A stretch of 64,000 nucleotides of DNA from NCBI GenBank assembly GCA_951406725.2, contig OX597818.1, positions 120,714,001 to 120,778,000 of the forward strand, given 5' to 3'. The notes below the pieces were generated by a model. The model worked only from the letters and a program-made list of their open reading frames with translations, did not search any database and was not told the origin of the DNA. Shown here one piece after another: positions 5,627-29,589 of this stretch. Position 1 is the stretch's first letter, and every line of letters starts with the position of its first letter. The DNA comes from Octopus vulgaris (lineage: Eukaryota). The translations under genes and the position numbers were made by a program.

Positions 5627-6149
5627 TATTATTATTATTATTATTATTATCAACATCATCATCATCATCATCATCCTTATTATTATTATTACTTTTTTTC
5701 TTCTTCTTTCAAATTTGCTTCCATTTCTTGCCGAGTGTCTTCCCGACTCCTAGGGCAAAGAAACTCATAGTATACATTGGTAGGCCATTAAACCAAGCTC
5801 AATAGTTCGTTCATTTAAAAAAAAAAATTCTTATTTTTTATTTTTTTTAAAGTTAAATTAAAATACATGAGCAGCAACAGTTCTCACATCGACAATGCTC
5901 TTCTCAATACGTGTGATGTACCAGTTAAGACAATCTTTTGCACTTCTTGCAGGGATGGTAAGCCAGGGATCATTCCCATATAATTTTCGGTTCCCTTCTT
6001 GATCATTCCTAGTGCTCCTACGATCACTGGTATTGTAACCGCTTTGAGATGCCACATTTTCTCTATTTCAATGAGAAGGTTTTTATATTTTCTGAGCTTG
6101 TCAAACTCTTTCGCTGATATATTATATTATTATTATTATTATTATTACT

Positions 6150-7400
6150 GAGTGAGAGTGAAGAATTTAATCTGGAAGATTTGAGGGAGTTCAAGGAAAT
6201 GCTTGAAAGCGGGGTGGAAAGATATGAAGGTGTTCCACCCCCAAAACGTATCAAAGGACAAGGAAGAAAGAACAATCGTATACAGAGCACTACGCCACAG
6301 CAACTAGGAAAATTGAAGCGGTGTCGGAGGCACAGGTAGAAAAGGCACTGAGGTCAGTCTGGCAGGAGACAGCATACCTGGCCATGGGTCGAAAATATGG
6401 AACGGTGGAGGTGCAGTTTAAGGAGATAGCAACTGCTAAATTATACTCAGCCGCACCGTTGAAAACGGATGAAGTAGTACTGCTACCCATGTACCATGGG
6501 AGACTTACAACCAGGGTTCGGGTGGAGGACATACCACCGGAGGTAAATGTAGCCTGGCTGGTGGCTGCCATTCTGTTGGGCATGGAGGAGAAGGTGGTGG
6601 TCCTGCAGGCCACCAGAATGCCGCACTGGCATTGGGAAGGAGAAACCCATGAAATGGTGGCACAGGTCGCTGAGGAAGACTTGGAAAAAATGGTCGAAAA
6701 TATCACAGTAGGAGAGTCGACTTTAAAGGTCAGAGTGGAAGGGAGAATCCCGCGATGTTATAAATGTAGCATGAAAGTCCACATTAGAGCGGAATGCCTT
6801 CCACCACTAGAAAAGGACAAGGAGAGACAGAGGGGAAAAAGTGGTTGGTGTTACAGGTCCTGAAGAGGAAGAAGAAAGTGAGGTGGTACCACAGAAGAAG
6901 ACAGGTACCAGCGTCGAGAAGGAGGAAAAATCGAACGCAAGTAGAGAAGAAGAGCAAGAAGAAAAGGAAAAAGACACACATGGTAAAAAATGACCCCAAC
7001 CCACAACCATTCAGCCCTCAACCAAACCCACTCTACCCCAACCACTCCCTACAGACACCAACCCTCCCCATGCCCAGTCTGACAATTGCAGACACACAAG
7101 AGCCTTAAAAGTGCCCACCCCGCCCTGTAATGAAAAATTCGTATTAATGTACAATGGACAGATTCAGGAACTGTATAACGAAGTAAATTCGTGGGACGGA
7201 ATAGTGAAGTTGGATATAACAGGTGTAAGGGGCCTTCCCGAGAACGATTATTGTATGCCGACGGACCTGGATAACCTGTGGAACGTGCATGGGTATATGG
7301 AAAACTGTGACTGTGAGTGGTGGTCCAAAAAAGTGGACACCAGCACAATACGGAAAAATCAGTACGTGGACATTAAAATAAAAATAATATAGACATTTTG
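6150..7400 (+). mobile_element. Non-LTR (L1/Tx1-type) ORF1/gag-like remnant with CCHC zinc knuckle
   Basis: ORF 6321-6863 with RRM-like segments and CYKCSMKVHIRAEC (CX2CX4HX4C), then a frameshifted K/E-rich region; no RT visible. Confidence 0.7.
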
Positions 7401-7780
7401 GAGAAAGACCTGGATTAATTATTGTGTAAATAACTGTGTTCAAATTGTGTATCAAATTGGCTGCTGCAAAGGGTAATATAAATGGTGTTGCTACAAGTTC
7501 AATGAGGTCGCTCGGAGGTGGGGCCGACTGATTTCATTCCATCCTTCATTGTATAAATTCCTTCATTCCAATCGTTTTGTCTTTCTCCCCACCTTGTGCT
7601 GTTCCCTCTGTGTAAGGCCTTTATGGCCATTTCATAAAAAAAGAAGCTTGCTTTCGAACCACACGGTTCTGGGTTCAGTTGCACTGCGTGGCTCCTTAGG
7701 TAAGTGTTTTCTACTATAGCCTCGGGTACACCAAATCCGTTTGTGTGGATTTGGCTGACAGAAAAAAAAGAAGCCTGTCG

Positions 7781-7811
<31 letters not shown>

Positions 7812-8942
7812 GTGTATGTGTGTGTGCGCGCGCGCGTGTTTTTGTGTCTGTGTTTGTCCCACCAACATCGCTTGACAACAGATGTTGGTGTGTTTACATC
7901 CCCGTGACACTAGCGTTTGCGAAAGGATGAAAGGCAAAGTCGACCTCGGCAAAATTTGAACTCAGAGCATAGCGCCGGGCGAAATACCGCTAAGCATCTC
8001 ATCCAGCGTGCTAACGTTTCTGCCAGCTCGCCGCCTTTGAATTGGAATATATTGCGGTTGTTTGTCTAAAAAGTATTATTATTAAGGTAGCGAGATGGTA
8101 GGATAGTTAGTACGCCGGACAAAATGCTTAGCGGTAATTCGTCCGTCCTTAAGTTCTGAGTTCAAATTCTACCAAAGTTCACTTTTGCTCTTCATCCTTT
8201 CAGAGCCAATGAAATAAGTACCAGTTGAGCACTGGGGTAGATGTTATCATCTAAATCCCTCCCCTAAAATTTCAGGCCTTGTGCCTTTAGTAAAAAGGAT
8301 TATTATTTTTATTTCTATTTTACTTCTCAGAGCTCTCGGTTTTATTTGATATAGTTTATTCTGCAAGAATATTTATATATACAAGAGGGTCCGCGAAGAT
8401 TTCACGGAATTAATAGTAAACCTATTTGGTTATTTCTGAAAACTTTAACCAAGAAACCTGAAAGCGCAGCCTGTGATGCGTCTGTATCAAAAGACAGTCG
8501 CTCATCTGTAACTCATTGAAAAGTGAAAGAAATCGGAATACGATGATATAGACACTTTATATACTTTATGTACAATTTTATAGACTTAATGCATAGCACT
8601 CATAAAATGAATATTCATTCTTATTTTTACATTTTCCCCAAAAACAAAACCAAAAGAAAATATCGCCTTACATATGATACAACCTTTAGTTAAATTTCAT
8701 ATATCTGCCACGTAAATAAGTGTGAATATATCACGGAATTGCTCTTATGTGCATGCGTTAAGTGATAGGTGATATAAAAAAAAAACTAAGTTCAATCAAA
8801 AATAGATACACCTTTCTCTATTCACTTACCACGGCCACCTTCACCACCACCACCACCATATATATATATAAATCCGAAGAGTTTTTAAAATATGCTAAGC
8901 CACTGGTTTTCATTGATTAATATCAATTTCTACCCTTATTTA

Positions 8943-8989
<47 letters not shown>

Positions 8990-9101
8990 GAAATTCGGGG
9001 TGAGTACTTGATAATTATAAGCACCTGTGTATACCGTTTGGTGGTGTAGGTGGTGGAGTAAATTGTTCAAAATAAAATAAAAACATGATGCGAAGGATTC
9101 A

Positions 9102-9179
9102 GCGGTACATATGTTTCGGGCCTTTATTGGACAGATTTATAACAATGCATAATGTATGTCTGTGGCCTTCTTCAGCCGC
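9102..9179 (-). ncRNA. Type I minimal hammerhead ribozyme (left arm)
   Basis: Reverse complement reads GCGG-CTGAAGA-AGGCC...GGCCC-GAAAC-ATAT-GTA-CCGC. Confidence 0.75.
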
Positions 9180-11279
9180 GCACAACAGCTTCCACAAGGA
9201 CATGTGTTACATCAAAAATCCTTGGTTGGGGATGCAAATCCTCTCATTCACGTACGACATAATGCGGCAGCAGCATAGAATTGAAGCGTCCATCTCTTTC
9301 TTCTCTCAATGTAGAATGAGGAAACTTGGATGTTGAGGTAATGTAATGTAAATAAATAAATACATATATAGAGGTGAAGATGGAGGGGCGAGAGTTCGGG
9401 ACGAGGGATAAAAAATGTATAAAAAGTGTAAGTATAGAATAATATAAAAATGTAGAGGATAAAGATATAAAGAGTTGTAAGGAGATGTAAAGGGGGTATA
9501 AAGAAATATAAAGAAATATAAATAAATGTAAAGGCATAAGGTTATAAAGTAAAAATAGAAATAGAAATAAAAGTAAAAAAACCTGATAAAACCATGATAA
9601 AAGTGTAAAAGAATGTAAAGATAAGGGATGTATAGAGGTTACGGGCCAAGCATGGTGGTCATGAGATTGATAAAATTTAGTTGTAGAATTGTCAGTAATT
9701 CAACAGTTTCGTCTGGGGACTTAATGCGTTGTAAATCAGAGCTGATGAGCATTTAATCTGGTTCCTTGAATTAAATGGACTTCTAGTACATACATATCAT
9801 CATGGATACATACACCCACATACACGCGTACGTATACGCCTCCAAGCCTATAAGCATACACACGCACTCGCGTGTAAACACGTACATAAACACACACGCA
9901 CCCACACGCACGCGCGCACACACACATACATACAACAGAATATCCGCATATATACACGGACATTACGCGCGTACACGCTCACATGTATATACGCGCGCCC
10001 ATCACTACATACACACACGTATATGCCCACCACATCCCGCTTTTTTACTTTTATTTTTACTTTTATCCTACTTCCATTTATTTTTATTTTTAATTTTATT
10101 TTTACTTTTATTCTACTTCCATTTATTCTCATTTTCATTTTCATCCCTTACCTTAACTCTTATAATTTTTATAATTCTTATACTTCATTTCTAACTATTA
10201 CATTGTATTTCTTATTTTATACTGTATTTTTTATTTCTAATCTTTACCCTTACCCTCATTCTTACCCCTAACTTATCGCTTTACACCTCTATATATGTTT
10301 ATTTACTTACCTATGGATCCACCTTTTGAATATACGAGCGTCCGCATACGTGTGTATACGCATACATACATATGCACGCGCATATATGTACATGCATACT
10401 TCGATATCTTATAGCTATACCCATGTGCGCGTGTGTCTCTGTGTGTGTGTATATGAGTGTATATGTGCACGCACATACGGACACACAGCCGTGTGTGCGT
10501 GCGCATATTGACATGAGTACGGGATTCTTTACTTACGTTCTTATACACATCCTTTAATATCTTATACCTGGACCTAGAGGCGTGGGCATATACGTGTGTG
10601 TATGTAGTGATGGGCGCGCGTATATACATGTGAGCGTGTACGCGCGTAATGTCCGTGTATATATGCGGATATTCTGTTGTATGTATGTGTGTGTGCGCGC
10701 GTGCGTGTGGGTGCGTGTGTGTTTATGTACGTGTTTACACGCGAGTGCGTGTGTATGCTTATAGGCTTGGAGGCGTATACGTACGCGTGTATGTGGGTGT
10801 ATGTATCCATGATGATATGTATGTACTAGAAGTCCATTTAATTCAAGGAACCAGATTAAATGCTCATCAGCTCTGATTTACAACGCATTAAGTCCCCAGA
10901 CGAAACTGTTGATTTACTGACAATTCTACAACTAAATTTTATCAATCTCATGACCACCATGCTTGGTCCGTAACCTCTATACATCCCTTATCTTTACATT
11001 CTTTTACACTTTTATCATGGTTTTATCAGTTTTTTTTTACTTTTATTTCTATTTCTATTTTTACTTTATAACCTTATGCCTTTACATTTATTTATATTTC
11101 TTTATATTTCTTTATACCCTCTTTACATCTCCTTACAACTCTTTATATCTTTATCCTCTACATTTTTATATTATTCAATTCTATGCGGCTGCCGCATTAT
11201 GTCGTACGTGAATGAGAGGATTTGCATCCCCAACCAAGAATTTTTGATGTAACACATGTCCTTGTGGAAGCTGTTGTGC

Positions 11280-11357
11280 GCGGCTGAAGAAGGCCACAGA
11301 CATACATTATGCATTGTTATAAATCTGTCTAATAAAGGCCCGAAACATATGTACCGC
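11280..11357 (+). ncRNA. Type I minimal hammerhead ribozyme (right arm)
   Basis: Stem I GCGG(11280-83)/CCGC(11354-57); core CTGAAGA(11284-90); stem II GGCC/GGCC with a long loop; GAAAC(11342-46); palindromic stem III ACATATGT; cleavage triplet GTA(11351-53). Confidence 0.78.
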
Positions 11358-11395
11358 TGAATCCTTCGCATCATGTTTTTATTTTATTTTGAACA

Positions 11396-11485
<90 letters not shown>

Positions 11486-11486
11486 C

Positions 11487-11895
11487 AGGAGTGGCTGTGT
11501 GGTAAGTAGCTTGCTTACCAACCACATGGTTCCGGGTTCAGTCCTACTGCGTGGCATCTTGGGCAAGTGTCTTCTGCTATAGCCCCGGGCCGACTAATGC
11601 CTTGTGAGTGGATTTGGGAGACGGAAACTGAAAGAAGCCTGTCGTATATATGTATATATATATTATAAGTGTGTGTGTCTATGTTTGTGTGTCTGTGTTT
11701 GTTCCCCTAGCATTGCTTGACAACCGATGCTGGTGTGTTTACGTCCCCGTCACTTAGCGGTTCGGCAAAATAGACCGATAGAATAAGTACTGGGCTTACA
11801 AAGAATAAGTCCCGGGGTCGATTTGCTCGACTAAAGGCGGTGCTCCAGCATGGCCGCAGTCAAATGACTGAAACAAGTAAAAGAGTAAAAGAGTA
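11487..11895 (+). mobile_element. tRNA-derived SINE family 2 (other copies ~22083-22475 +, 32170-32600 -, 36998-37800 + interrupted, 53820-54205 -, 7640-7920 + partial)
   Basis: Head agtggctgtgtggtaag...gggttcagtcc; internal (TA)/(TG) tract; tail ggcggtgctccagcatggccgcagtcaaatgactgaaac(aagtaaaagag)n. Confidence 0.88.
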
Positions 11896-12313
11896 TAGGT
11901 ATGTATATATGATATTAAATGCCTCACTGGATATCTAATTGAATATTGAAAGTCACATGACACACACATAAATGTCATGCTAATGGGCATGATAACCTTC
12001 TAAGTTTTGGTTATTCATTTTTGGATAGTTTCTAAATAATGTTGCCATAAATTTTGAGGGGAAGTGCGTGATCTATACAATTGATTCCAGTAATTGACTG
12101 GCAGTTTATTTTATCGACATACATGTGATAATAAGTAATGTCGATTTGCACGGGATTTGAGCTCAGAATGTAAAGATCTGGAACAAATAACACAAAACGT
12201 TTTCCGACGGTTTAACGATTCTAAATCATATAAATTTGGAGAAAATATTTCTTGATGAAAATAACACCTGAAGACGTTTTAGTATTACATCTGGGTTGCT
12301 ATGATTACAGCAG

Positions 12314-12471
12314 TTATCGATGGCTAAGTTTGATACGAATACCATTGGAAGGATTGAGTACCAAGTCAAAAGATGGCTCAAGCTCTTCTATTGTCTGTGT
12401 CGTTTCAAGATTAAATTTGTGGATGATTCGTGATATTACGACTTTCTCCTCTAACATAGCGAATTTCTGAC
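12314..12471 (-). CDS. CYP4: CYP4 gene B exon 12 (terminal)
   Basis: ttcag|GT CAG AAA; GQKFAMLEEKVVISRIIHKF...DLVLNPSNGIRIKLSHR*; 158 nt. Confidence 0.95.
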
Positions 12472-12712
12472 CTGAAATCACAGAGAATAGATATTTTGAA
12501 AGTACTTTTGAATTCATTGAGTCACAGGAAAAAAATTAAAATAATTAGAGTAGCTTGTTAGATCAATCACATTTTTTAAATGCAAAATATCGCAAATACA
12601 TGAATGAATGATATTTACATTGCTGAAGCAAAATAAAAGAGAAACATATTTTCATATATTCTTATAATATTTATACAATAAGCTGAATAAAATTTACTAT
12701 GACGATAAAGGA

Positions 12713-13318
12713 GTACTCCGACGGTTACGACGACGAGGGTCCCAGCTGATATGATCAACAGAACAGCTTGCTCTTGAAATCAACGTGCAAGTGGCTGAGC
12801 AATCCACCGACACGTGTATCCTTAACGTAGTTCACAAAGAAATTCAGCGAGATACAGAGTGTGATAAGGCTGGCCCTTTGAAATACAGGTATAACTTATT
12901 TTCGCCAGCTGAGTGAACTGGAGCAACGTGAATTAAAGTGTCTTGCTCAAAAATAGTACGTCGCTTTACAATCGAATGCCCTAACCACTAAAAAAAGACT
13001 CCGCTGGTTACGACGACGAGGGTCCCAGCTGATACGATCAACGGAACAGCTTGCTCGTGAAATTAACGTGCAAATGGCTGAGCATTCCACAGACACGTGT
13101 ACCCTTAACGTAGTTCTCGGGGATAATCAGCGTGACACAGAGAGTGACAAGGCTGACCCTTTGAAATACAAGTACAACTCATTTTTGCCAGCTGAGAGGA
13201 CTGGAGCAACGTGAAATAAAGTGCCTTGCTCAAGGACACAACGTGTCGCCGGGAATCGAACTCACAACCTTACGATCATGAGCCGAATGCCCTAACCACT
13301 AAGCCACGCGACTTCACA
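12713..13318 (-). mobile_element. Tandem pair of tRNA-derived SINE family 3 (also ~4690-4940 +, 16410-16697 -, 62187-62555 +)
   Basis: Reverse complement: gtggcttagtggttagggcattcggctc...gagttcgattcccgg...gtgtccttgagcaag...ccctcgtcgtcgtaacc; two copies head to tail. Confidence 0.85.
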
Positions 13319-14117
13319 TTATGACCATAACTTCTCCCTTTACGTGTATACGAAGGAAGTAAAGAAGATAGTGTTGTTGTTGTTGTAATTGTTAAGTTCC
13401 AGCTAATGGTTAACCAGAACGATCAGTACCTAACGTCTGTGACAACATTTAGTAATTAGTTGCTCCTTGAATTCTTCGGATGTGTAATTCCATTTTCTCT
13501 TCGCTGGACAACAAAAATTGTCTGGAGTGTATATTGATATTAATAATAATAAATAGACTTGTCACATTCGTAAAATTTAGCTTTTGTAAAATTATCTTCA
13601 CCGTTCATACAAGGCGAGATAAAGAAATAAGTTGAAACGGAAATATTTAACAGAAAGTAAAGAATGCAATGATTTATAACAGGCAGAGGCTCTACACACC
13701 ATTAGTAAGGCACGGTTAATCCTAGTACCTGTGGCTTCCGGTGGAATAGGAACTTAGACTGAAAAGTGAAGCAAAGGTATGCAGACAAAATCTTCTTCCG
13801 ACTTTCTGATAGTAAATTATTCAATGTAAAATAGAACACATAAAAATATAAATACTATGTACATTAGACACCCTGATCTTTGAGCTACGCATCTTGTTGA
13901 GTATCCTACAAAGGAACCTCATTTTTGTTGCTTATATTTACGATCGTATTCTTTCAGTCACTACCAAACATTCGTGACCAAAGGTGAGAATAGGCAAGGA
14001 AACCGCTTTGAAGATAGCAAGTTGCAGTCCGCAAATATTTCTGAAAATTGACTCACTAAAAAGAGAAACATTTTTTTTTAAATGGAGTTTTTAAAGCACT
14101 TCCACCAAATCCCTATC

Positions 14118-14156
<39 letters not shown>

Positions 14157-14215
14157 CGACGACGACGACGACGACGACGACGACTACTACGACGACGACG
14201 ACTACGACGACGACG

Positions 14216-14246
<31 letters not shown>

Positions 14247-14268
14247 AAACGGCAACAACAGAACTTAC

Positions 14269-14445
14269 CTATGCAGTTACGAGGCCCTGCTGAGAATGGT
14301 ATAAAGGCATGCGGTGACCTGTCGGTATCTTCTAGAAGAAATCTATCAGGATCGAATGTGTCTGGGTCTGGAAAGTTTTGGGGATCTCTATGTAGAGAAG
14401 CAATCACTATTGAGATAGGAGTATCCTTCTTTACTTCATGATGAC
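14269..14445 (-). CDS. CYP4: CYP4 gene B exon 11 (PERF and heme-binding motifs)
   Basis: GHHEVKK...[17 protein letters not shown]...[13 protein letters not shown]; 177 nt; ag/gtaagt. Confidence 0.97.
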
Positions 14446-15270
14446 CTGTAAACATAATTTCAGCATTTTGAATCTTAATCACTACAATGTAAGATTGGTT
14501 TCAGATTTTGGCACAATGCCAGCAATTTCGGTGGAGGGTTTAAGTGGATTAAATCTACCCCAGTGCTCAACTGGTACTTATTTTATGGACCCCGAGAGGA
14601 TGAAAGGCAAAGTCGATCTCAGTGGAATCTAAGATTTTTTTTATGTCTGGATGAAAGACAAAATGATCATGGCTGGAGCGCTGTTCAATCAATGCTGACT
14701 TGAAGTTTAAGCCACATCATAATGATTTGAAATTTTCGCACAAAGCCAGCGATTTCGGGCAAGATGGTAAGTCGATTACTTCAACCCCAGTGTTTAACTG
14801 ATATTTATTTTATCGACCCCGAAAGGCAAAGTCAACCTCGGCGGAATTTGAACTCAGGGCGTAAAGACGGACGAAATGCCGCTAAGCATTTTGCCCGGCG
14901 TGTTAACGATTCTTCCAGCTCGCCTTAAGCCAGCCACTTCAATGATGATTTTAGCACAAGACTAAGAATTTCGAAGAGGGGATTCATCGATGACTTTGAC
15001 CCCAGTTTTTAACTGGCACTTACTTTATCGACCCCGGTTTCAACTTGAAAGAACAGGCCTATCATCAAATGCTTTTCAAACCTGACCGTTTCATCTTCCC
15101 TATATCTCTGACTATATTGATCATTATGTCATTACTTTAGTTAAGAATGTGGGATGTGATTTGAGTTATATTTGGCTGTTGTTACTGACTTATCAAACTA
15201 CTATCCAGAAGCCACCTCACTGGGTTGCCTGCCATTCGTGGTTATTCATCATAATAAGAAATAAACTTAC

Positions 15271-15337
15271 CAATTTTGAAATCCTCAGCAGACACACGTC
15301 CAATTATTGGTACAGATGGATAAAGACGTTGAACCTC
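15271..15337 (-). CDS. CYP4: CYP4 gene B exon 10 (K-helix ExxR)
   Basis: EVQRLYPSVPIIGRVSAEDFKI(G); 67 nt; taag|...|gtaagt. Confidence 0.93.
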
Positions 15338-16792
15338 CTTAAACAAAAAACACAGTAAATATTACTTTCAATTTATTATTAAATAATAAAGTATTCCAGC
15401 TCTTAACTTCATTTTTGTAGATTTATGTAAAAAGTCCTTAACAGCATTTATTGAATAAGGTGAAATAAACTCATTCAAGCGTTACTACTCTTCAATGTAA
15501 ACTTAGCCTCTTATCCCTCGGAATTGAAAAAAGAAAGTACCAGTTAAATATTGTGGGCGATCTAATCGACTAACACCGACTCGTAACTTTCCGGCTTTGT
15601 AATTCTGTGAGAAATTATTGTTGTGTGCAGGGTGGATCCGACTAACGTTTGAGTCCATCGCGAAAATTGTCACGTTGCTTTGATTTGGAGAGAAAGTATA
15701 AGCTGTCTTCCTTTGTTTGATGGCTTTCGTAAAAGAGATCTGAAAGGGCCGGAGTGTGGTTCAGACAACATGGTTAGAAACGGACCGGAAAAAGTTGTTC
15801 TTGAAAGGTCAGGAGGAACAGTATAATGCATACATTGATGATCTCGTTATGCTGTCTCTAATGATGCCCAGGAGCGCAATGAGAGTGATGTAGCTACAGA
15901 AATATTTAATGACGACGAAGAAAATGAGAATTAACAGTTGTGGTATCTGTCTTGCAACATGTCTCTCCACAGCTCGTGTCTTTGACAGAATTGCAATCAT
16001 GGGTCAAACGTAGAGCAAGGTTGAGCGTTTGTGATCTAAAATGTTGTGAGGATAGCACTGCATTTTTGCCATCGAGTTAGTAGAGGGTCTAAACAACAAA
16101 AGGAGGACATATGAAATTCCCCAGAACTTCTCCACTTCTGAATATCGTACAAAAAATTACACTATTTTACCCAAAATTGTTTTCTTTTTTCATTCATGAC
16201 AATAAATCGCATGCGACAAGAGCTCAAAATGGTTTGAATTTCGAACTTCAAAATCTGATTTTGCTACTAGTTTCTTTGGGTTCTAGTTCGTATTTTTATC
16301 TCTGACAATTTTCAGTCATATGTTAATAACCAGGCTTCATATTTAAGATACAGAAAATAGGACTGATTATACTATTTCAGTAATGTCTATTAGTTTAACG
16401 GTTGAACTGGTACTCCGTCGGTTACGAAAACAAGTGTGATATTTGATCCAATCAACGCATGTGTAAGCGGCTGAGCACTCTACACTCACGTGTGCCCTTA
16501 AAGTAGTTCCCACGTAGATTCAGTGTGACACCTGAGTGGCTCCTTCGAATTACAGGTACAATTAATTTTTGCCAGCTGAGGGGACTGGAACAATGTGAAA
16601 TAAAGTGTCATGCTCACGGACGTAACGCTTAGAATCGAACTTACGACCTTACGATCGCGATCAGAATACCCTAACCAATAAGCTACACACCTTCACAGTT
16701 TAACAGTTGTATTGTCCATATAAATTTGTCATCTCTAAAACAGGAATAAAAGAAAGCCTGAATTGCAACATCCTTATATAAATGGCTCAGAA

Positions 16793-16900
16793 TGAAATTA
16801 AAATATATATTAAATATCTCCTCCGTATTGAAATTAAAATATATATTAAATATCTCCTCCGTATTGAAATTAAAATATATATTAAATATCTCCTCCGTAT
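16793..16900. repeat. 36-bp tandem repeat x3
   Basis: tgaaattaaaatatatattaaatatctcctccgtat three times, no spacers. Confidence 0.95.
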
Positions 16901-17234
16901 TTTGTTTTACTGTTTATCATAAAATCTGAGTACTTTATTGACTCCATAATTTAGTAATTGTAATTAACGCATGCCTAGAATAAAGATACCTAACTTAAGG
17001 CGGCAAACTGGCAGAAACGTTAACGCCCCGGGCGATTTGTTTAGTGCTATTTCGTTTGTATTTACAATCTGTGTTCAAATTCATCCGAGGTCGACTTTTC
17101 CTTTCATCTTTTCGAGGTCGATAAATTAAGTACCAGTTATGTACTGGAGTCGATCTAATCGACTGGCCCTCTCACCAGAAAAGAATATGTTAAACATTTA
17201 TTTTGTTATAATTACTAATGGAATTTCTGTTTAC

Positions 17235-17296
17235 CTTGATAATACATTCCAAATAGACCAGTTTCTTAATATTTGACAGTGTGAGTTCTTCTTCAC
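17235..17296 (-). CDS. CYP4: CYP4 gene B exon 9
   Basis: (G)EEELTLSNIKKLVYLECIIK; 62 nt; caag|...|gtaaac. Confidence 0.92.
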
Positions 17297-17371
17297 CTTG
17301 AATAAAAAGAAAGCAGAAAAGTATGTGTTTACGAATATAGAACAACTTTACTACAACAATAATAATAATAA

Positions 17372-18787
17372 TAGCTCATCTAATACTTAGAGATACTTTC
17401 TAAAAGCCTTTCACGTATGTTTTACTTGTTCCGGTATTTGAACTTCTGTTAGAGTTCGCCCTTCAAGAATTTCAGTCAGTATATCGACCATGGAAATTAG
17501 TGTTATATTTACTGTGTTACTCAGACACGTGAGTTTTGTATACATTGAATCAGGCATGTATAGGAGATACAGCAAATGTGAGAATATCATATGAATCACA
17601 ACCACTTGGAATTAGGTTTAAAGTATTAATTCACTCCTCTAAATATATCCACCTGGCATTACTATCTATCTTCACATGTTACCTTATTTGTAATTCTAAC
17701 AACTGGAGAGTAGTAGTTAGAAACGTTATCATTATATATAAATATAAGAGTAATTTTTGAATATTTCATTTCTGGAGGCCAAACACTTAACTTCAGAAAC
17801 TTTTAAAACAAAACTGCAGTCCTAGGTCCAGTGAAGACCATGTTTGGGAGTATGGAAGCTGAAAGTCGATCAGCTACTCACAGTTCTTTGCCAAGAAAGG
17901 AAGCCAGGAATTGGCACTTCAACCCTTGCAGTGTATGAATGTTGGGAAAAAGTGAGAAAGTGGATATTCACGAGGATATTCTTGGAGTCAATGTGGGCAC
18001 CAGCAATTCCGGAGGATTATCAGACAAGAGACTACGGGCAACCTCTGCAAATTCCAATCCTAGAAGTGCTAACGGAGTGGAAGGGGAGTCCAAATTCGCA
18101 ATCAATACGGCAGGTACACCAGCACCGTCAACCGAGGACTCTCCGACACTTGTATAGATCGGTAAAACCATCTTGAACGTTTCGTTCATTTTCGAACCTT
18201 CCTGACATGTAGAGTTATGTGAAACAGCTGTGTAATTACGTTCAGGACGTGTTTTGCTATCCCTCGTGTCTATTGTAAGATCTTCCTGCTGTCCTCTTTT
18301 TACCGGGAATGGAAAATCTTGCTCCTTTTCCTTATAGCCACAATGAAAAGGGATTATATGGCGGACAAATTGAAATGATTGAATGCAGACACTTCAGCCC
18401 TCATGAAGAACATCATCTTTTCTAAGTTCCTTTTGAAATGGCCTGTATGAATTGACATAATTTCAACATGCACCCGTGGGTCGGAAAGCACATCTGGTAA
18501 AGATAATCTTGGCTTTGCTAGTTCCCTGTATTAGCTCATCTAATACTTAGAGATACTTTCTAAAAGCCTTTCACGTATGTTTTACTTGTTCCGGTATTTG
18601 AACTTCTGTTAGAGTTCGCCCTTCAAGAATTTCAGTCAGTTATATCGACCATAGAAATTAGTGTTATATTTACTGTGTTACTCAGACACGTGAGTTTTGT
18701 ATACATTGAATCAGGCATGTATAGGAGATACAGCCAATGTGAGAATATCATATGAATCACAACCACTTGGAATTAGGTTTAAAGTAT
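17372..18787. repeat. 255-bp direct repeats (17372-17626, 18532-18787) bracketing a decayed TE-like segment
   Basis: tagctcatctaatacttagag...ggtttaaagtat present twice, nearly identical. Confidence 0.9.
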
Positions 18788-19053
18788 CTGGTATCTGTCC
18801 CTTTTATGTTTTCCATACATATTTTTTATTCTCATAATAATCCAGTGAAAATCCCCAACTTTTTTTTATAATTTGACCCTGTATCGACCTGATTATCCGT
18901 CATCACTGTGGCAAATACAGGAATTCATTATGTTTAAATGCTGATAATCATTTTGTTCGGTGCAGCAACGATTTGTCCTGCACGCCGTTGCAACATTTGC
19001 AAAATATTAATCACAACAATAAAACGAGAGTTTGTATGAAGTTCACAACTCAC

Positions 19054-19156
19054 CATAAAAATCATCGACTTCTTTCTGTAACTTCTTTTGTACATGTGGA
19101 TAAGCGGCTATGAAGTATAATGTCCAGTTAATTCCTGCAGCCGTTGTATCATGACC
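19054..19156 (-). CDS. CYP4: CYP4 gene B exon 8 (I-helix)
   Basis: [34 protein letters not shown]; 103 nt; ccag|...|gtgagt. Confidence 0.96.
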
Positions 19157-21079
19157 CTGGAGGAACAGCGTAAACATTTCATTTTAATGGATACTGAACA
19201 GTTACCTGATAACTCGGAAAGTCAGATGCTATATTTCAGAATTATGCAACATTTAGCATAACTACGCACATCCTAATTAGGCTTACAAAATGAAAAATAA
19301 TATAATATGCATTTAGACTAATTCAATAGAGACAGTTCAGCAAACATTTGGTAATTAAATGCGGTGGAAAGGTTTACAGTGCAGTGTTTTTCACGTTGTA
19401 CTTATTAAATGTGGACACATACACCGGAAAATTCAATAACTATTGGCTTCAGATTTTAGTAGCCTGGGGGAAAGTCGATTGCATCAATCTCAGTGCTCAA
19501 ATGGTACCTATTTAATCGATCCCGACTCGATGAAAAAGTTGACCACGATGGATTTTGAACTCAGAACGCCTCGACGTAAAAAATGGCGTGCTAACGATTC
19601 TGCCAGTTCACCTTTCTTAAATGCAGTGTTTTCTTATCTTATTTCTTTATTGCCCGCAAGGGGCTAAACATAGAGGGGACAAACAAGGACAGACAAAAGG
19701 ATTAAGTCGATTACATCGACCCCAGTGCGTAACTGGTACTTAATCTATCGACGCCGAAAGGATGAAAGGCAAAGTCGACCTCGGCGGAATTTGAACTCAC
19801 AACGTAACGGCAGATAAAATACCGCAAGGTATTTCGCCCGGCGTGCTAACGATTCTGCCAGCTCGCAATGTTTTCTTATCTGCAGAAAGTAAGGTACAAC
19901 AGTTATTAGATTTGTTTTTCAAGTCTGACGGTAAAAATAAAAATTGTGTTTTTGAATGTAGACAGTAGAGAACTGTTCACATTATACGTATTAACTGTTG
20001 ATAAAGCAATCCTGTAAACATAATATTTATTAAATATCTATTAAATATAGGCGCAATCACAACTTTGTGGTCAACAAGCTCGTTTTGTAACTTCCTGGTT
20101 TCAAGTTCAGTATTACAGCACGGAACTTTGGGTAAGTATTTTCTGCCATAACTCCAGACCAATCAATGCCTTGTAGACAGCAATTGTGTGGATGTCCGTC
20201 GCAGACATGCACATGTGTGCCCGTGCGTTTGAGTTTGGTCCCATAGCTTGACAAGTGGTGTTGGTTTGTTTAAATAACCATAATAACTTAGCGATTCGGC
20301 GAAAGAGACCTTTATCATTATTATTATTGTTATTAGGCGGCATGCTGACAGAATCATAAATGCGTCAGGCAAAATGGTAATTTCTTCTTGCTATTCACAT
20401 TCCAAACTCAAATTACGCCAAGATCCACTTTGCCTCTCAGAGTCGATAAAACAAGTACTAATTGAGCACTAGGGTCGATTTAAAACTGTTGGCCTTCAAA
20501 ACTGTTGACCTTGTGTCTAAATATGAGACACTTATTATTTGCATACATTAAAAGTATCTAATGTGTTTTCTTAATCCAGTAGGAATCACTCGTAATTGAT
20601 GCCTCAGTATAAAGAATGTTCTAATCCAATTGAAACACGCAGGTGAGACACAAATCGCTCTTATGCAAAGATCCATAACGATATCAAAACTGCAAATAAA
20701 ACCAGAGATCGATGAATTTAATGGCTGTCTTCACCGGCAAAATTCAGTGCGTATACCTCACTGAGATGTGAGAACTGACGTTTCGAAGAAAACCGTCGTT
20801 TGGAAAACATTTTTGTTAATGTAGGATTAAAGTAACCGTTAGAATACATGTTTGAAAAAAGTGTGAGAGGGGGAAAACGTTAGCATGAAGAGTCAGGGAA
20901 GGCGACAGTAATTCGGACGTTTGCTTGTATTAGGTTGGAAAGAATTCCCTGTTACATTTTTGACCTGATCACTCAGGGTATTTTTTCAATATTTATGATA
21001 AAATGAGCATTAAGTTTTACATTAATGATTCTCTCTTTGTAGATTGAGGCTAAATGCATATTGATTTTAACCTTTAAAA

Positions 21080-21290
21080 GTGAGTTTAGATCAGAGCCAT
21101 ATCAGACACTGCACGTTGTGTGACTGCAAAAGGGGCCCTTAAGTAATAGAAGCTGCAAGAAATATTCGTCCTATCTGTGGCAATGAAGTGCCTGGATATG
21201 CCAGACATGGCTTGGCCAGATTCACTCGGGAGATATTTCTCTAGCGCTGGACGATCAAGTTCTGTCTAACGACCAACAATTTACCGAATA
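21080..21290 (+). mobile_element. Decayed mariner transposase N-terminal fragment
   Basis: HIRHCTLCDCKRG...EAARNIRPICG...CQTW...SGDISL across frameshifts. Confidence 0.5.
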
Positions 21291-22659
21291 GATAGGAGTG
21301 TGTTGTCAATAATCCTTTCTACTATAGGCACAAGGCCTGAAATTTAGTGTTTGGGTTTGGGGTGGGGGCTTGTCGATTATATCGACCCTAGTACTTCACT
21401 GGTACTTATTTCCTCGACCCCGAAAAGATGAAAGGCAAGTTGACTTCAGCAGAATTTATACTCAGAACATAAAGACGGACGAAATACTGCCAAGCATCTT
21501 GGCATAAGGTCGCTGCCTTATGAAGGGAAATGTCTTAATTAAATATGTCAATTAAGATCAAAGAGCCATTTGCTTCTCTTCCATCGTGAAAGGCAACGGG
21601 TCTTGGTATATATGGCTGATGGTCAGAAACCCCTTACTATAGCAATCGGACAATAACGAGAAGAGATAAGAGGTTTTTATGCTTTGCGTATTCTCACAAA
21701 ATTATTCTCTGATATGTGAGTTCCTGTCATGTTAATATGTTTGTCTTTGTATATGATGTGACGATTTCTTTGTTCTTTAAACTATCACTAGAACGGAATG
21801 ATTTTGTAGTAAGTTTATCAGAATTACTGATAAATATACTCCAGTTAAATTGACAAAATATTTTAATACAATAATAAATTCAATGTATGAATTATTACGG
21901 ACATATTTCAAACCGTAGTCTGATAAACAAATGATTGTGCCTCCATACATTTGGTCGACCTGATACTTATACTTAGATTAAGGATAATAACGATCTTATC
22001 TACCTGGACATTGATATATGTAAATACAGACATAATGTATACTGAATTGTCGGTGACAGATTCCACCTATAAACTGAAGTTAGTGGCTGTGTGGTAAGTA
22101 GCTTGTTTACCAACCACATGTTTCCGGGTTCAGTTCCACTGCGTGGCACCTTGGGCAAGTCTCTTCCACTATAGCCTCGGACCGACCAAAGCCTTGTGAG
22201 TGGATTTGGTAGACGGAAACTGAAAGAAGCCCGTCGTATATATGTATATATATATGTGTGTGTGTTTGTGTGTATGTTTGTCCCCTTAGCATTGCTTGAC
22301 AACCGATGCTGGTGTGTTTACGTCCCCGTCACTTAGCGGTTCGGCAAAAGAGACCGATAGAATAAGTACTGGGCTTACAAAAGAATAAGTCCAGGGGTCG
22401 AGTTGCTCGATTAAAGGCGGTGCTCCAGCATGGCCGCAGTGAAATGACTGAAACAAGTAAAAGAGTGAAGAGTATACATACACACATACATACGGTTTGG
22501 AGATGTGAGAAGAGAAAATACATTTATCTAACTATGACTTCCACATGATCACAACCGTTTCGTAACGACTGAACCAATTAAAAGAGTAAAAGAGATTTAT
22601 AGCCTTGAAAACTTTCAGATAGCATTTTAATGAATATCAATGTATATCAATAAACTCAC

Positions 22660-22836
22660 CTCGAACATAAATGTGTCTACTTCTTCTCTCAATGACTTTT
22701 TGTCTATTTCCCCTCTGTGTAAATGATCAAGGAGCGTATCTAAAAAAGCCATTTTCTTTCTCCGTGTGTCTCCCTCTTCATTATCAGTTTTTTGCTTCGC
22801 GTCTTTTAGATAGAGTGCACTGCGTTCTTCAATCAC
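22660..22836 (-). CDS. CYP4: CYP4 gene B exon 7
   Basis: VIEERSALY...RKKMAFLDTLL...LREEVDTFMFE; 177 nt; atag|...|gtgagt. Confidence 0.96.
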
Positions 22837-22910
22837 CTATAACAATTGAAACAAATTGGGACAATGATGAATAAAGAGAAAATTAAAGATGCACAGGCGT
22901 ATGCTAGTTT

Positions 22911-23470
22911 CGTCGTCGTCGTCGTCGGCGCCGGTGGCATCCGTCCGTCTCGAGAGACGATGGTGTAGCTCGGAAAAGGAGGTGGGTTTATCTGCACTCC
23001 CTGGTGTGGCTGTGCAGACCAATCATCGAGTGGCAGTCTCTACCACATCTAGTGCAAGTGAAAGGGAATGAGAGCTGAGCTTATCACCGGTAACTGTCCC
23101 TTCCCGTGTTGTGTCAGGATCTTACGATACTGTCCTCTTCGTTGAGCCACAAGGCCTGGGCAGGTTTATATGAGGGATCAGCTGTTGCCCATGCAGTTTG
23201 ATCCCCTCCTCTCCACGCAGCTGGTAGCTCCAAGGGAACGACGGGTCGATACAGCTTGGTACCAGATGCGTCGCAGGAGTTGCCGGTGATGGCGTGTTGT
23301 GTCAGGCCGCCTTAGGGACTCCGGCTCCGGATTTTCTGTCGGGGTTTACTCCCTTAGCCTTACGCAGTAGGGGGTCCTGCCGCAAGGCAGCGAAGGTTTG
23401 AAATCGGAATTTCCCTCTCCTAGTTGGGCTGCCAGCCAAGCTATCGAGTCCCAACTACCCGAAGCATGTT
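22911..23470 (-). mobile_element. Non-autonomous RTE-like element (5' UTR-like part joined to 3' end)
   Basis: GC-rich island; reverse complement begins cttggctggcagcccaactaggagagggaaattccgatttcaaacc and ends ccatcgtctctcgagacggacggatgcc followed by (GAC)n, resembling RTE termini as I recall them. Confidence 0.55.
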
Positions 23471-23854
23471 TAGGGTTATGTTTACTTGACGACCGTGTAT
23501 TTCAGGGATCGATCCCACTGCACGACAGTTTGGGTAAGTGTCTTCTTTTCTAAGTTTAACAAATTGTGTGGAATACTGTCGTTTATATCTGTGAATGACA
23601 GATTTGCATTTCGTAGCTGACGATGCTAAAGGGCACAGAAACCCTTGCCCCCTACGATCAAGTGGCGTCATTTACAACTCAGTGTCTTAACATAGATCTT
23701 GGAGAAGAAATTTCTTCCGGGATTATTTCCGCAGCGGAAGGTTTGCTCACGTCCGTTGAATGCACTTGAATGTGTTGAATATGATTTTACAAGAATAAAT
23801 TTTATTGAACGCTGACATCATACACACACACACACACACACGCACACACACACG

Positions 23855-23886
<32 letters not shown>

Positions 23887-23920
23887 CACACACACACTCT
23901 CTCTCTCTCTCATACGCACG

Positions 23921-23955
<35 letters not shown>

Positions 23956-24322
23956 CTTTCAGAACTTATAGTTCTGCCGATTGAAAGTTGTCTGTATGTG
24001 TGTTCACTTAATGTAGTTCTCAGGGAGATTTAATATGATACAGAAGGACAAAGCCGGACCTTTAAAATGCAGGTGTAATTCATTTTTGCCATCTGACTAG
24101 ATTGGAGCAACATATCAATTTTGAAAACAAATTAAAGTTTCTTATATTTTCTTAAACATTCTCTAGATTAGTGCTATGTGCAAAACCAACTATATGACGC
24201 CCTAGACATAACACCATCATGAACTTCTAACTTATTGTCTCTTGAGGCCCCTGGGTGAGACTTGGAGCCAACTTCTACAAATACAAAAGCAAAATTCAAG
24301 CGTATGATGATGATGATGATGA

Positions 24323-24372
<50 letters not shown>

Positions 24373-24374
24373 TA

Positions 24375-24772
24375 ATGGAAACTAGACATAGTGTTAATTG
24401 AGAAAAAAGCAAACGATGCTGGATCAAAGATGTAGCATACCCAGCTCTCAATAAAGTATGCGATAAGGAAGAAAGAGAAGTCGATAGATATAACAGGTTA
24501 GCTTGGGAGGTTAAGCAGTTGTGGTCAATGAAAAAAGTGGTAGTAGTACCAATAATTGTCAGAGCCCTGGGAACAGTGAGTAAAAATCCTGAGAAGCACA
24601 CAGAACAAATAGCGGCTGCAATAAGGGTGGAGCACTTGCAGAAAACAGCGCTGCCTGGAACCACTCGAATACTCCTGATGGAGCTCGAAAAATAAGGGGT
24701 GTTATCTTAGTTCACTGGAAGTGAACAGCTAACACCGTAGTACATCTCCAGCGTTAGAAGCTGTGCAAGGAC
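24375..24772 (+). mobile_element. R4/Dong-like (RLE) non-LTR 3' fragment inside (AAT)n
   Basis: CWIKDVAYP...DRYNRLAWEVKQLWSMKKVVVVPIIVRALG...LQKTALPGTTRIL. Confidence 0.75.
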
Positions 24773-24931
<159 letters not shown>

Positions 24932-25302
24932 AATAATTATTATTATTATTGCAGTACCAGGCAGTGGGTCTTATGGCTTCTGATCTTAACTGATTGGAAA
25001 TCTTATCATGTGGAGTTCAAACTTGTTACTAACAAAGCAACAAGACATTTTGTGATAAAATAATTCCCAGGGTTTATGAATATGTGGTTGAGTTATATTG
25101 TACATGTGAACTTTTAGTTAAAGAATTCAAACATAACTAAGAAAGAGAAATCGATGAAATAAAGGTTGGACTTAAATAAATATTGGAATTGTTACGATGG
25201 ATGTGGTCTAGCAAGCGATGTACCAGCAAGACCACAGTTTACTAAGATAGACTTGTAGAAAAGATCACAACATACAAGTAATATAAGACATAATTCGTAT
25301 AC

Positions 25303-25429
25303 CTTATCCGTGAAATCATGAAGGTATTTCAAGCATTTAGCTGCTTCTTTCCCGTAAGGATGCAAATTGAAGAGAAACTGTGGCCACAACCACGGTGATT
25401 TTGACTGGTAAGTAATTAGATCAGCTATC
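25303..25429 (-). CDS. CYP4: CYP4 gene B exon 6
   Basis: (R)IADLITYQSKSPWLWPQFLF...LHDFTDK; 127 nt; tttag|...|gtatac. Confidence 0.95.
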
Positions 25430-25878
25430 CTAAAAAACATTATGCAAATTGTCGTTAATTTAGTTAATGTTAATGAAATTAATTATGAACATAAAGGTAT
25501 TACTTGACAAAACATGCTGGGTCTTGAGTCGCTTTCGACTGTTAGCGCTGTAGTACATTATAAAGTATATTACGGACGCACATACGCGCTCGCACATACA
25601 CACATACACACATACACACATACACATATATGTTTATGTGTGTGTGTATGTATGCGTACCTATGTATTTATCTATTTGTCTGACTGTCTGTATATATATA
25701 TACATATATATATACATACATATATATATATATATAAATAATAATAATAATAATAAATATAATAATAATAACAACAACAACAATAACAGCAACAACAACA
25801 ACAACACCACCATCACCACCACCACCAACAACAACAACAACGACGATGACAACAACAACAACAACAACAATAATAATG

Positions 25879-25918
<40 letters not shown>

Positions 25919-26818
25919 ACAAAATATGGAACAAAGCCGTAATAGGCAACAAGAAAACATCCAGGCAGTTGATACAGAAAAGGACAGGCAAAAATAAGGA
26001 CGGGTTATTCGGAGATTTTTTATCATCAATCGAGTTCCAGATCATCGTTGCAGTTTCGCCGGTTACGCACAAGACTGCTCCAATCTGGCCAGTCCAAAGA
26101 AAATTCAAAGAAAAGAGCACTAGATCCTTTGAAAGAAAGCAAGCGAATGTATACGAAATCAAAGACGAAAAAATTGAGTAATGGTACATAATCACAAATA
26201 CAAACAACAGATCTCTTTCGACTGAGGACGAATTAAATTAAGCTGGCGTGTTACAACGGGAACATAGGAGATGAAAGTCATGGGAAGAAATATAAGAGGA
26301 TGCTACACGGATGGTAGTCGAATCAAGAAAGGGCAGTTTTGGAAGAACACTGATCACGTGGAAGGAGAGGAAAGAGGTAGGGGGCAGAGGGATTGAAGAA
26401 TTAGGGAGGGACGAGAAAGAGAGAAAAAGAAAGGAAAGGGACAGAGTGAGGTAAAGCAGGAGGAAAAGTGGTGAGAATGAAGCGAAAGCCAAGAAATGTG
26501 AGAGAGGGGAGCGAGGAAAAGAAAAGTGGAAAGAACGAAACAAGTGTGAAGAGGGCTAAAAGAAAGAGTAAAAGAGTTAAGCGTTGCCGAAAAGTAACGT
26601 TGTTTTTTTTTTTAAGCGATAGTGCGGCGTCATACCACAGATTGTTTACGAACCGAATAAAAAGTGTCCGAATAATCAGCATAAAGTAGTAAGCACATTA
26701 ATGTGGCTATATGATATGCGTGCATATGTTCTGTCGGATATTTTTTGGAAGACAAGGACTTTAGTGAGCTGCACATTCGGCATGGCATGCTTTACGAATC
26801 TCGTAAAGGCAACAGTGT

Positions 26819-27140
26819 GAAATCAAAGACGAAAAAATTGAGTAATGGTACATAATCACAAATACAAACAACAGATCTCTTTCGACTGAGGACGAATTAA
26901 ATTAAGCTGGCGTGTTACAACGGGAACATAGGAGATGAAAGTCATGGGAAGAAATATAAGAGGATGCTACACGGATGGTAGTCGAATCAAGAAAGGGCAG
27001 TTTTGGAAGAACACTGATCACGTGGAAGGAGAGGAAAGAGGTAGGGGGCAGAGGGATTGAAGAATTAGGGAGGGACGAGAAAGAGACCCCAAAACGATGA
27101 AAGGAAAGGGACAGAGTGAGGTAAAGCAGGAGGAAAAGTG
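26819..27140 (+). repeat. Local direct duplicate of 26155-26470
   Basis: gaaatcaaagacgaaaaaattgag...aggaaaagtg repeated at offset 664-670, with a short SINE-like patch at ~27087-27099. Confidence 0.85.
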
Positions 27141-28747
27141 TTTAGAAGAAATACCTATTTCTTTACTACCCACAAGGGGCTAAACATAGTATGGACAAAC
27201 AAGGACAGATAAACGGATTAAGTCGCTTATATCAACCCCAGTGCGTAATTGGTACTTATTTAATCGACCCCGAAAGGATGAAAGGCAAAGTCGACCTCGG
27301 CGGAATTTGAACTCAGAACGTAGTGACAGACGAAATACTGCTAAGCATTTCGTCCGGCGTGCTAACGTTTCTGCCAGCTCACCGTCTCCTCACGCGTCAA
27401 AGTATTGACTTTTCCCGGAGCTTTATTAATCCTCGGTCCACAGTGCAAAATTAGCTGAAATAGGTTGAGAAAGTCTATACAGAAGAGAAGTGGGTACCTC
27501 ATGTATCCTTCTTAGACTTTCACGTATTCAGATCATTCGAACATTCACAATTATGGGCGATACCAATATAGCATTATAAACATTTTTATTTTCTAAAGAA
27601 TCTTCATAGTTTCCCCCAGGAAAACTCGTTTCGTGGTGAGTTAATTGTTATTGCTAACAATGATGACTATCTCTTGAATGAAGAAATGTATTAACGATAC
27701 GTATTATACTTATTTGAAATGCATTATTTTTCGGTACCTCTAATACATACATAGATACATACATACATACATACATACATGCATGCATACATACATACAT
27801 ACATACATACATACATACATACATACATACATACATACATACATACATACATAATACATACATACACAAATACATACATACATACATATATATACATATA
27901 TATAAAATACAAAATGGGACAAAAAAGTATAACAAAACATCCAGATAGACGATACAAAGAAAACAAGGACAAGTCATTCGAAGTTTTCTTTCCTCAGTCG
28001 AGTTCCAGATTATCTTTGCAATTTCGGCTGGTTATACTCGAGATTGCTCCAATCTGGCCAACCCCAAGGAAAAACTAAGATAAGCGCGTTAGATTCCTTG
28101 GCAGAAAGCAGCAAATGTATACGAAAACAGGGACGGAAAAATAGGAGAATGTTATACAAATACAAATAACAGGACATGCATTCATACTTACATACACATA
28201 TACATGCATACATGCATACATATATACTTGCATGCATGCACGCACACACACACGCTTCAGTACTTTATTGTTTATCTATCTTGTATTATTTTACATGTGT
28301 ATATATTACCGAGGTACGCGTGCGTGCTCGTGTACGTGTATCTATTTATGTCCATTTTGTAAGTTTGTTACAGCAATTTATTGTCATACCTACTTAAGTG
28401 TATGTGTACCTATGTGTTCGTAACTAAATATCAAAATATCAAAATCTTTTCTTTAATATAGAAATTTTCATAGAAGACGTTCTGAAGAAGATTTATGAGG
28501 TTTTAATGACACTCAGCTCCGGTTACATGGTTTCTAGTAGTTGAAATTGTTGTAAGCTAATGAAGATGATTATGTAATTTATATTTTTTTCATTATTCAT
28601 TTATAATGTATGTATAAAGAGTAAAGACCCCTTTGGTCATGAATGACCATGGAATTGTATCGAGAAAGTTAACCGGGCAAGGTTATTTATGAATTATTTA
28701 CATTATTTACATTTGATGGATATTTGTCCTCATCTGGTTTGTTGTTA

Positions 28748-28791
28748 ACACAACGTTTTGGCTGATACACCCTCCAGCCTTCTTCAGGTGT
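28748..28791 (-). ncRNA. Minimal hammerhead with core mutation (G12->A)
   Basis: Reverse complement: ACAC-CTGAAGA-A-GGCTG-gagggtgtat-CAGCC-aAAAC-GTT-GTGT; stems I and II pair perfectly but GAAA reads AAAA. Confidence 0.65.
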
Positions 28792-28884
28792 CTTGGGGAA
28801 ATTTCGAATCTGGGTTCTCATTCCTAAGATATTTTTCGATATTATTGTTATTATCATCATCATTATTATTATTATTATTATTAA

Positions 28885-28952
<68 letters not shown>

Positions 28953-29056
28953 TCACTGCCTGGAATCGATCTCAGAATCTTGGGAGTCGTAGCCCCGCAC
29001 TATTAACCACAAGATTCTGAGTTCGATTCTAAGCAGTTACCTGAATAATAATGATG

Positions 29057-29205
<149 letters not shown>

Positions 29206-29220
29206 GTAGTAATAATAATG

Positions 29221-29282
<62 letters not shown>

Positions 29283-29376
29283 CCATCAGAGCATCACAAC
29301 AAATCACAGCACATACCCAAGGCACACAGAGCTGCGCTCGGTAGTGAAGTGAAAGCACGGTATAAAAATAAATCTA

Positions 29377-29462
<86 letters not shown>

Positions 29463-29545
29463 TGATGATGATGAGGATAATGATAATAACAATAATATCG
29501 AAAAATACCTTAGGAATGAGAATCCAGGTTCGAAATTTTCCCAAG

Positions 29546-29589
29546 AAACCTGATGAAGAGTGGAGGGTATATCAGCCGAAACGTTGTTA
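29546..29589 (+). ncRNA. Minimal hammerhead, core intact, stems eroded
   Basis: aaac-CTGATGA-agagtg-gagggtatat-cagcc-GAAAC-GTT-gtta. Confidence 0.55.

Follow-up and report, generated by a model that had tools for sequence, protein, structure and literature searches.

The fold-back at positions 8987–11400 of the window (the whole analysed stretch of 64,000 nucleotides) is quite probably a two-armed copy of a high-copy repeat without recognisable ORFs, inserted into (TA)n DNA by the RT-endonuclease of a Penelope-like element (PLE); read-through RNA of such a copy would bury its hammerhead ribozyme in a duplex prone to ADAR editing. The features of the locus are given in Table 1.

Table 1. Features of the fold-back and its flanks (positions of the window).
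Feature	Positions	Strand	Remarks
(TA)n tract	8948–8986	.	left half of inferred target site
72-nt 3' tail	8987–9058	-	left arm only; AC-rich start; long 3' end of the family
Inverted arm	9059–10030	-	5'-truncated at 10030
Left-arm type I hammerhead	9102–9179	-	predicted cut after 9106
154-nt block	9286–9439	-	family norm, deleted from right arm
"Spacer"	10031–10581	+	5' part of direct copy; itself high-copy family sequence
Direct arm	10582–11400	+	short 3' end adjoining (TA)n
Right-arm type I hammerhead	11280–11357	+	
(TA)n tract	11399–11483	.	right half of inferred target site; then unrelated SINE-like repeat 11484–11835

The preliminary description, made from the sequence of the locus, had reported near-identical inverted arms lying between (TA)n tracts, and both observations stand: the 818 aligned columns of 9059–10030 and 10582–11400 contain seven substitutions and one 1-nt insertion, and a (TA)n tract adjoins the structure on either side. 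The arms are not equal. The 154-nt block of the left arm is missing in the right arm, with a 3-nt microhomology (TTC) at the join, and the left arm reaches 72 nt further before its (TA)n, while no such tail is seen on the right arm. Contigs of two public sequencing runs (X2 and X20) likewise pass from 8988/8991 into (TA)n. The block is not an intron, as splice-type ends are absent from it on both strands, whichever register is used; the left flank 8700–8947 was also considered as a relative of the tail and rejected (similarity 39.5, with the 95th percentile of random windows at 44).

The middle of the structure is the 5' part of sense family sequence and no neutral spacer. The strand composition of 10031–10581 is that of the right arm, and 10031–10330 resembles the sense block 9640–9286 (score 201.5 in the sense orientation vs 28 reversed; 1 of 1200 block shuffles reached 201.5). 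These two segments look like a diverged internal duplication of a pyrimidine-rich block of about 300 nt in the element body. The direct copy is 1.37 kb long and has one hammerhead; the approximately 1.4 kb upstream of the hammerhead are of low complexity, partly self-duplicated, and lack a protein match, yet they are high-copy. None of the contigs listed bridges the 10030/10031 junction, no target-site duplication is readable within the (TA)n, and within the 8987–11400 copy the hammerhead end is not repeated directly as a pLTR.

Each arm ends in a hammerhead motif, and the core, stems, and palindrome described earlier are all located. In the right arm, GCGG is found at 11280–11283, the CUGAAGA core at 11284–11290, and GAAA at 11342–11345; stem III is the palindrome ACAUAUGU at 11345–11352, and cleavage is predicted after A11353. 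Stem I has 4 bp, an extra A is present at 11291, and stem II (11292–11295/11337–11341) contains a 41-nt structured insert. The type I elements C3–A9, G12–A14, A15.1–U16.1, and H17 are all present together with the three stems; the mirror hammerhead of the left arm is read from 9179 to 9102 on the minus strand. A descriptor requiring the core words, stems I and II of at least 4 bp, and a palindromic stem III matches only the two arm hammerheads in the 64-kb window, and 200 block-wise dinucleotide shuffles give one match, a somewhat favourable figure, as the descriptor was drawn up after the motif was known. An Rfam search, proposed earlier as a check on the motif, does not return it: the 30 matches at E ≤ 1 in 6000–15000 include no hammerhead family.

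The minimum-energy structure of the 78-nt motif alone is the hammerhead (-11.8 kcal/mol); with flanks it is not the minimum-energy fold (z = +1.06 for 131 nt, z = +1.12 for 204 nt). The 41-nt "loop" of stem II is predicted to form a 3-bp hairpin besides another helix of 5 bp. A second copy of the motif could, by prediction, pair with the palindrome of stem III (-7.0 kcal/mol). Stem II can be drawn in two registers, one with an A·C pair followed by four G-C pairs, and the other with an unpaired A after A9, the pair G10.1-C11.1, and a bulged C, which is 3.4 kcal/mol less stable in the model. Hence, the A·C mismatch noted at the first stem II position is valid as one register only; the second, with its extra nucleotide, G10.1-C11.1, and bulged C, fits published PLE hammerheads, so that the A may be no mismatch but the extra nucleotide usual in PLEs. 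None of the 11 DNA-variable places falls in a constrained hammerhead position (31 constrained of 196, P = 0.14), contig depth is highest over 11340–11359, in the core's 3' half, and the divergence of related contigs lies either in the insert or 5' of stem I; conservation of the core across copies is suggested here, at a level that is not significant.

A second hammerhead at 9742–9777 was considered and rejected, with its core words on opposite strands and position 9745 varying among contigs. An 8-bp hairpin preceded by CTGATGAG occurs, antisense to the hammerhead, at 9742–9777 (+) and at about 10898–10905 (+); GACGAAAC lies near CTGATGAG on the other strand, probably by chance, since 9745 varies. 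Beyond this locus, the exact 21-nt hammerhead pattern has no matches in viral contigs and none in metagenome contigs. Degenerate patterns give 3 + 100 loci, none of which matches the element by blastn, and the stem test is passed by one of the 103 (L021). This motif, at L021:613–662 (-) in eukaryote-like DNA, has the same hammerhead layout, with the extra A, G10.1-C11.1, the bulge, and a long structured stem II, and it also has the ACAUAUGU stem III and GUA; no long ORF or repeat attributable to a PLE is found in its surroundings.

The family was sampled in public runs, of which 20 of the 24 listed, from nine studies and with three organism labels, contain at least half of the query words. Six runs were analysed in detail, at the level of contigs: X1 and X11 are DNA, X15 is labelled "DNA?", and X2 and X3 are probably RNA (the label is guessed), from individuals other than those of the DNA runs. 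Summed contig depth in X1 and X11 is 4.0–9.7e5 over 9095–9310, 3e3–2e5 over 9311–10012, and 4e3–9e4 over 10175–10552; over the tail (8987–9058) it is 1.5–2.4e5 in X1 and X11, and most of the diverged single contigs listed have depths near 30–300. From these values, which are no copy numbers, we infer thousands of copies, with 3' ends outnumbering 5' ends. The several-fold drop in depth 5' of 9310 has the direction expected for 5' truncation, although depth does not count copies and related subfamilies share the 3' part. The family is also homogeneous, with 6 (X1) and 10 (X11) places varying at ≥3% in 279 nt. The depths, this homogeneity, and the few differences between the arms suit a high-copy family and bear out the earlier view that the element is young.

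The 154-nt block is the family norm, being carried by loose ends at 11174 and 11176 in all four of four runs. One diverged X2 contig has a 10-nt loose end resembling the deletion join; hence, the deletion may recur. Beyond 11385, the loose ends of 22 contigs in X1 and of 18 in X11 go on in either a tail-like or a (TA)n-like manner. Over the whole element, loose ends passing into (TA)n are found in X2, X20, and X11; a variant linker ahead of the tail is also seen at 11385. One X3 contig joins the reverse-complemented tail to 11291 and is, thus, a second inverted junction. Loose ends at 11274, 11306, and 11330–11338 point to related subfamilies sharing only the hammerhead part or its 3' half. 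Both arms of the fold-back share alleles at 9066, 9592, and 9662 that are essentially absent in other contigs, among the variant rows listed (40 of 107). Private changes number at least four in the left arm (9129, 9220, 9645, 9699) and at least one in the right arm (11120). The shared alleles and the few private changes suggest that the arms were copied from one template, or a very close one, with short drift thereafter. The SINE-like repeat that adjoins the right (TA)n has 10 relatives in the window, at 68–91% identity.

The copy is not an autonomous PLE. None of its 17 frames has a Pfam match at E ≤ 5, and the earlier statements that it contains no visible RT or GIY-YIG ORF and is non-coding in the part seen are upheld. 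Two short frames, 10816–10917 (+) and 9247–9396 (-), bear a faint resemblance to PLE endonuclease motifs; as candidates for this endonuclease they were rejected, with no Pfam support for either and, for 9247–9396 (-), nothing from a word-index search or phmmer over 1.84 billion proteins. The best value for the latter frame in the Atlas is 0.77, a lead only. For the two best-looking 50-aa frames, one of them the tail frame 8987–9136, no homologue is found, and no ATG-led frame runs through the tail in this copy. An 86-codon open frame without a Pfam match lies at 9076–9336 (+), antisense to the hammerhead end. Membership in the PLEs is suggested by anatomy alone, and the element would appear to behave as a PLE passenger. 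The preliminary description had spoken of a PLE/retrozyme-like family; its PLE part agrees with the inverted truncated arm, the one-sided tail, and the (TA)n target, which match the accounts available in PMC8557442 and PMC4209133, while the retrozyme part is not retained, as discussed below.

The two-armed copy can be explained by the following series of events. The PLE enzyme would nick both strands of AT-rich or (TA)n DNA, as is suggested by the in vitro work, in the part available, on PAc, the Poseidon element of Anolis carolinensis, the protein of which, when purified, cuts AT-rich DNA on both strands and extends them, and whose cDNA begins at two internal sites, the interval between them being the tail (Frangieh et al. 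2024, PMC11167929). Here, too, the family RNA would offer two internal start sites for cDNA, 8987 and 9059/11400, with 72 nt between them. Synthesis of one cDNA would halt at 10030, that of the other would reach 10031 of the direct copy or beyond, and these truncated cDNAs would be joined back to back; a jump between microhomologies, either in the course of insertion or later, would have produced the 154-nt deletion. As part of the pLTR-like 3' end, the hammerhead would be carried along; it might act on source transcripts of a single orientation, where the palindromic stem III would allow a dimer or a protein would assist, and not in the fold-back copy, where the read-through duplex would likely be edited by ADAR instead of being cut.

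As the two hammerheads lie on opposite strands, read-through RNA holds one sense hammerhead preceded by its complement. For the whole 2414 nt the predicted fold has about -1610 to -1640 kcal/mol, and 78 of the 78 hammerhead nucleotides on the plus strand and 77 of 78 on the minus strand are predicted to pair with the other arm. Read-through RNA is, thus, predicted to bury the sense hammerhead in a duplex of about 820 bp with its antisense, and cutting by the hammerhead in the fold-back copy is unlikely under this model. With one motif on each strand, no dimer can arise in cis at the locus, and the dimer activity considered earlier is not expected here. The fold-back is situated approximately 0.9 kb past the stop codon and 0.7 kb past the AATAAA of a minus-strand gene, presumably cytochrome P450-like by its motifs; read-through from this gene into the fold-back is possible.

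Variation among the contigs of the runs points to editing of the family RNA. Rows specific for X3 (<1% in both DNA runs, ≥3% in X3) account for 18 of the 29 variant rows; A>G is seen in 13 of these 18, compared to none of the 11 DNA rows (Fisher p = 1.3e-4). At six of these 13 sites neither DNA run has any depth for the change, and the other seven show a trace of up to 0.3% in DNA. The core positions A6 and N7 (11287–11288, +) are read as G in 5% and 42% of the X3 contig depth, respectively, vs 0 and 0.1% in X1/X11, the count being family-wide; the A>G sites also include five positions and, in addition, 11302 within the insert of stem II, as well as two immediately beyond stem I. Among the 29 rows there is none for A9, the extra A, A13–A15, or A17. 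One X3 loose end corresponds to 11319–11343 with 7 of 10 A read as G, and site 11237/9222 is changed in both X2 and X3 (two studies). Together, A>G and T>C account for 29 of the 65 places in X2, compared to 40 of the 188 in the remaining three runs (p = 6e-4).

In the strand test, A>G prevails over T>C on the hammerhead strand near the 3' end (13 vs 2, p = 0.007; a T>C row at 11242, with depth 23 and matching one diverged contig, was left out). X15 carries one of the 13 A>G changes (11360) in one contig. Apparently, family transcripts undergo ADAR-type editing, mostly on the hammerhead strand near the 3' end; this signal is family-wide and not assignable to the present copy, with RNA labels guessed and individuals unmatched. 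An ADAR scar fixed in the DNA of the arms was considered and rejected, as no one-strand A>G pattern is seen among them in the seven substitutions. Lizard Penelope and octopus RNA are heavily edited according to the available text of PMC5625713, and that of PMC6962438 gives 235 hammerheads for the giant squid genome; our literature search, which covered listings and the openings of abstracts, found no report of ADAR editing of the core of a natural PLE hammerhead. A bolder proposal, in which the two-armed geometry makes the element's own transcripts double-stranded and ADAR editing of A6, N7, and the stem II insert is a host switch on the ribozyme and thereby on RNA processing of an active family, seems unlikely to us.

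Several other explanations of the locus may be considered. It could derive from an autonomous PLE whose non-coding 3' region is very long, the copy being its 3' end truncated twice, and no dedicated non-autonomous family would then exist; the direct copy is indeed cut at 10031, depth keeps declining 5'-ward, and truncated copies hold most PLE hammerheads according to the part available of PMC4209133. The character of the approximately 1.4 kb upstream of the hammerhead, which are of low complexity and still high-copy, argues against it, and we consider this origin quite unlikely. Even less probable is an incidental hammerhead within a DNA fold-back element, an inverted duplication of local origin, or a fold-back made by the assembly: the long inverted arms, 99% alike, with low-complexity internal blocks, and the central junction bridged by no listed contig would suit such an origin, but the arms are unequal (tail, deletion) and differ at places where one arm is the family majority, the spacer is sense family sequence, depth is polarised toward the hammerhead end, and another inverted junction is found in X3.

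Very improbable, too, is a large monomeric non-LTR retrozyme, whose unit of at least 1.6 kb would be cut by consecutive hammerheads, closed into a circle, and copied through a PLE enzyme. Its motif is intact, the family appears to be transcribed, and retrozymes have been proposed to be non-autonomous PLE derivatives, as far as the available text of 10.64898/2026.07.22.740005 goes. However, head-to-tail hammerhead repeats are absent from the window and from the listed contig joints, except one 48-nt and one short local duplication; no end at the cut site 11353/11354 is seen among the loose ends listed (23 of 110); and known metazoan units, in the part available of PMC7229834, have 150–450 bp. 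The "retrozyme-like" label given earlier is not adopted here, as the copy has no tandem unit of this size. A two-armed insertion of an ORF-less, PLE-mobilised family is preferred over these alternatives.

An insertion of this PLE type is to be expected, and known PLE biology accounts well for the structure. Being young and clean, with two 3' ends 72 nt apart, the copy offers a genomic test of the two-start-site model of PAc, and through the family one might trace an active PLE enzyme of this animal that targets (TA)n. Two questions are linked by the editing signal: the role of PLE hammerheads, which are dispensable for insertion in vitro in the account available in PMC11167929, and the source of heavy non-coding editing in such genomes.

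Elsewhere in the window, 12314–31517 (-) and 52800–60700 (+) contain exons of at least two divergently arranged genes with near-identical exons; these genes are presumably cytochrome P450-like, the name being given from their motifs. A mariner-like transposase remnant (Pfam HTH_32, E = 2.5e-4) and two LINE-looking frames are seen at 44624–45411 (+), 6228–6863 (+), and 24402–24695 (+), the LINE-looking frames having no convincing Pfam match. A 283-bp tandem dimer with units 85–87% alike occupies 12706–13244 and overlaps a sub-threshold tRNA-like match at 13244–13312.

Among known systems, the closest in layout are the EN+ PLEs, for which an inverted 5'-truncated copy, a tail at one end, and a (TA)n target are described in the available part of Craig et al. 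2021 (PMC8557442). As in their units (Penelope/Poseidon, Neptune, Nematis, Hydra), an inverted truncated arm here abuts a longer direct copy, the tail is one-sided, the target is (TA)n, and the hammerhead is near the 3' end; unlike them, this copy has no ORF or direct pLTR repeat and has a long low-complexity body, and its tail is 72 nt long vs 30–40 nt usually cited.

PLE hammerheads, as far as described in the part available of Cervera and de la Pena 2014 (PMC4209133), have a long helix II, a helix I of 4–5 bp, a small palindromic helix III, and an unpaired nucleotide before G10.1-C11.1, and dual motifs occur on opposite strands. The present motifs resemble these metazoan type I hammerheads in the short stem I, long stem II, small palindromic helix III, and opposite-strand pairing of motifs, and the possible unpaired nucleotide before G10.1-C11.1 with the helix II bulge is found also in a Drosophila virilis variant. 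They differ from the published ones in the 41-nt structured stem II insert and in stem III, predicted here as 2 bp plus a 4-nt palindromic loop.

Similar to PAc in the account available (PMC11167929), the family has two 3' ends with a tail between them, the inner one bearing an AC-rich stretch, and an AT-rich target. The PAc hammerhead requires protein and is dispensable for insertion in vitro; the PAc ORF begins inside the hammerhead, while the present tail is crossed by no ATG-led frame and the tail frame has no homologue. With non-LTR retrozymes, in the sources available (PMC7229834; 10.64898/2026.07.22.740005), the family shares its non-coding nature, type I hammerhead, high copy number, and probable mobilisation by PLEs, and it differs from them in having no tandem units, a unit of at least 1.6 kb, and a variant instead of a canonical hammerhead. 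Finally, the family is similar to ADAR hyper-edited repeats (Porath et al. 2017, PMC5625713) in its clustered A>G changes and in being a repeat able to form a long duplex; unlike the hyper-editing described in the available part of that paper, which makes no mention of hammerheads, the edited positions here include the core positions A6 and N7.
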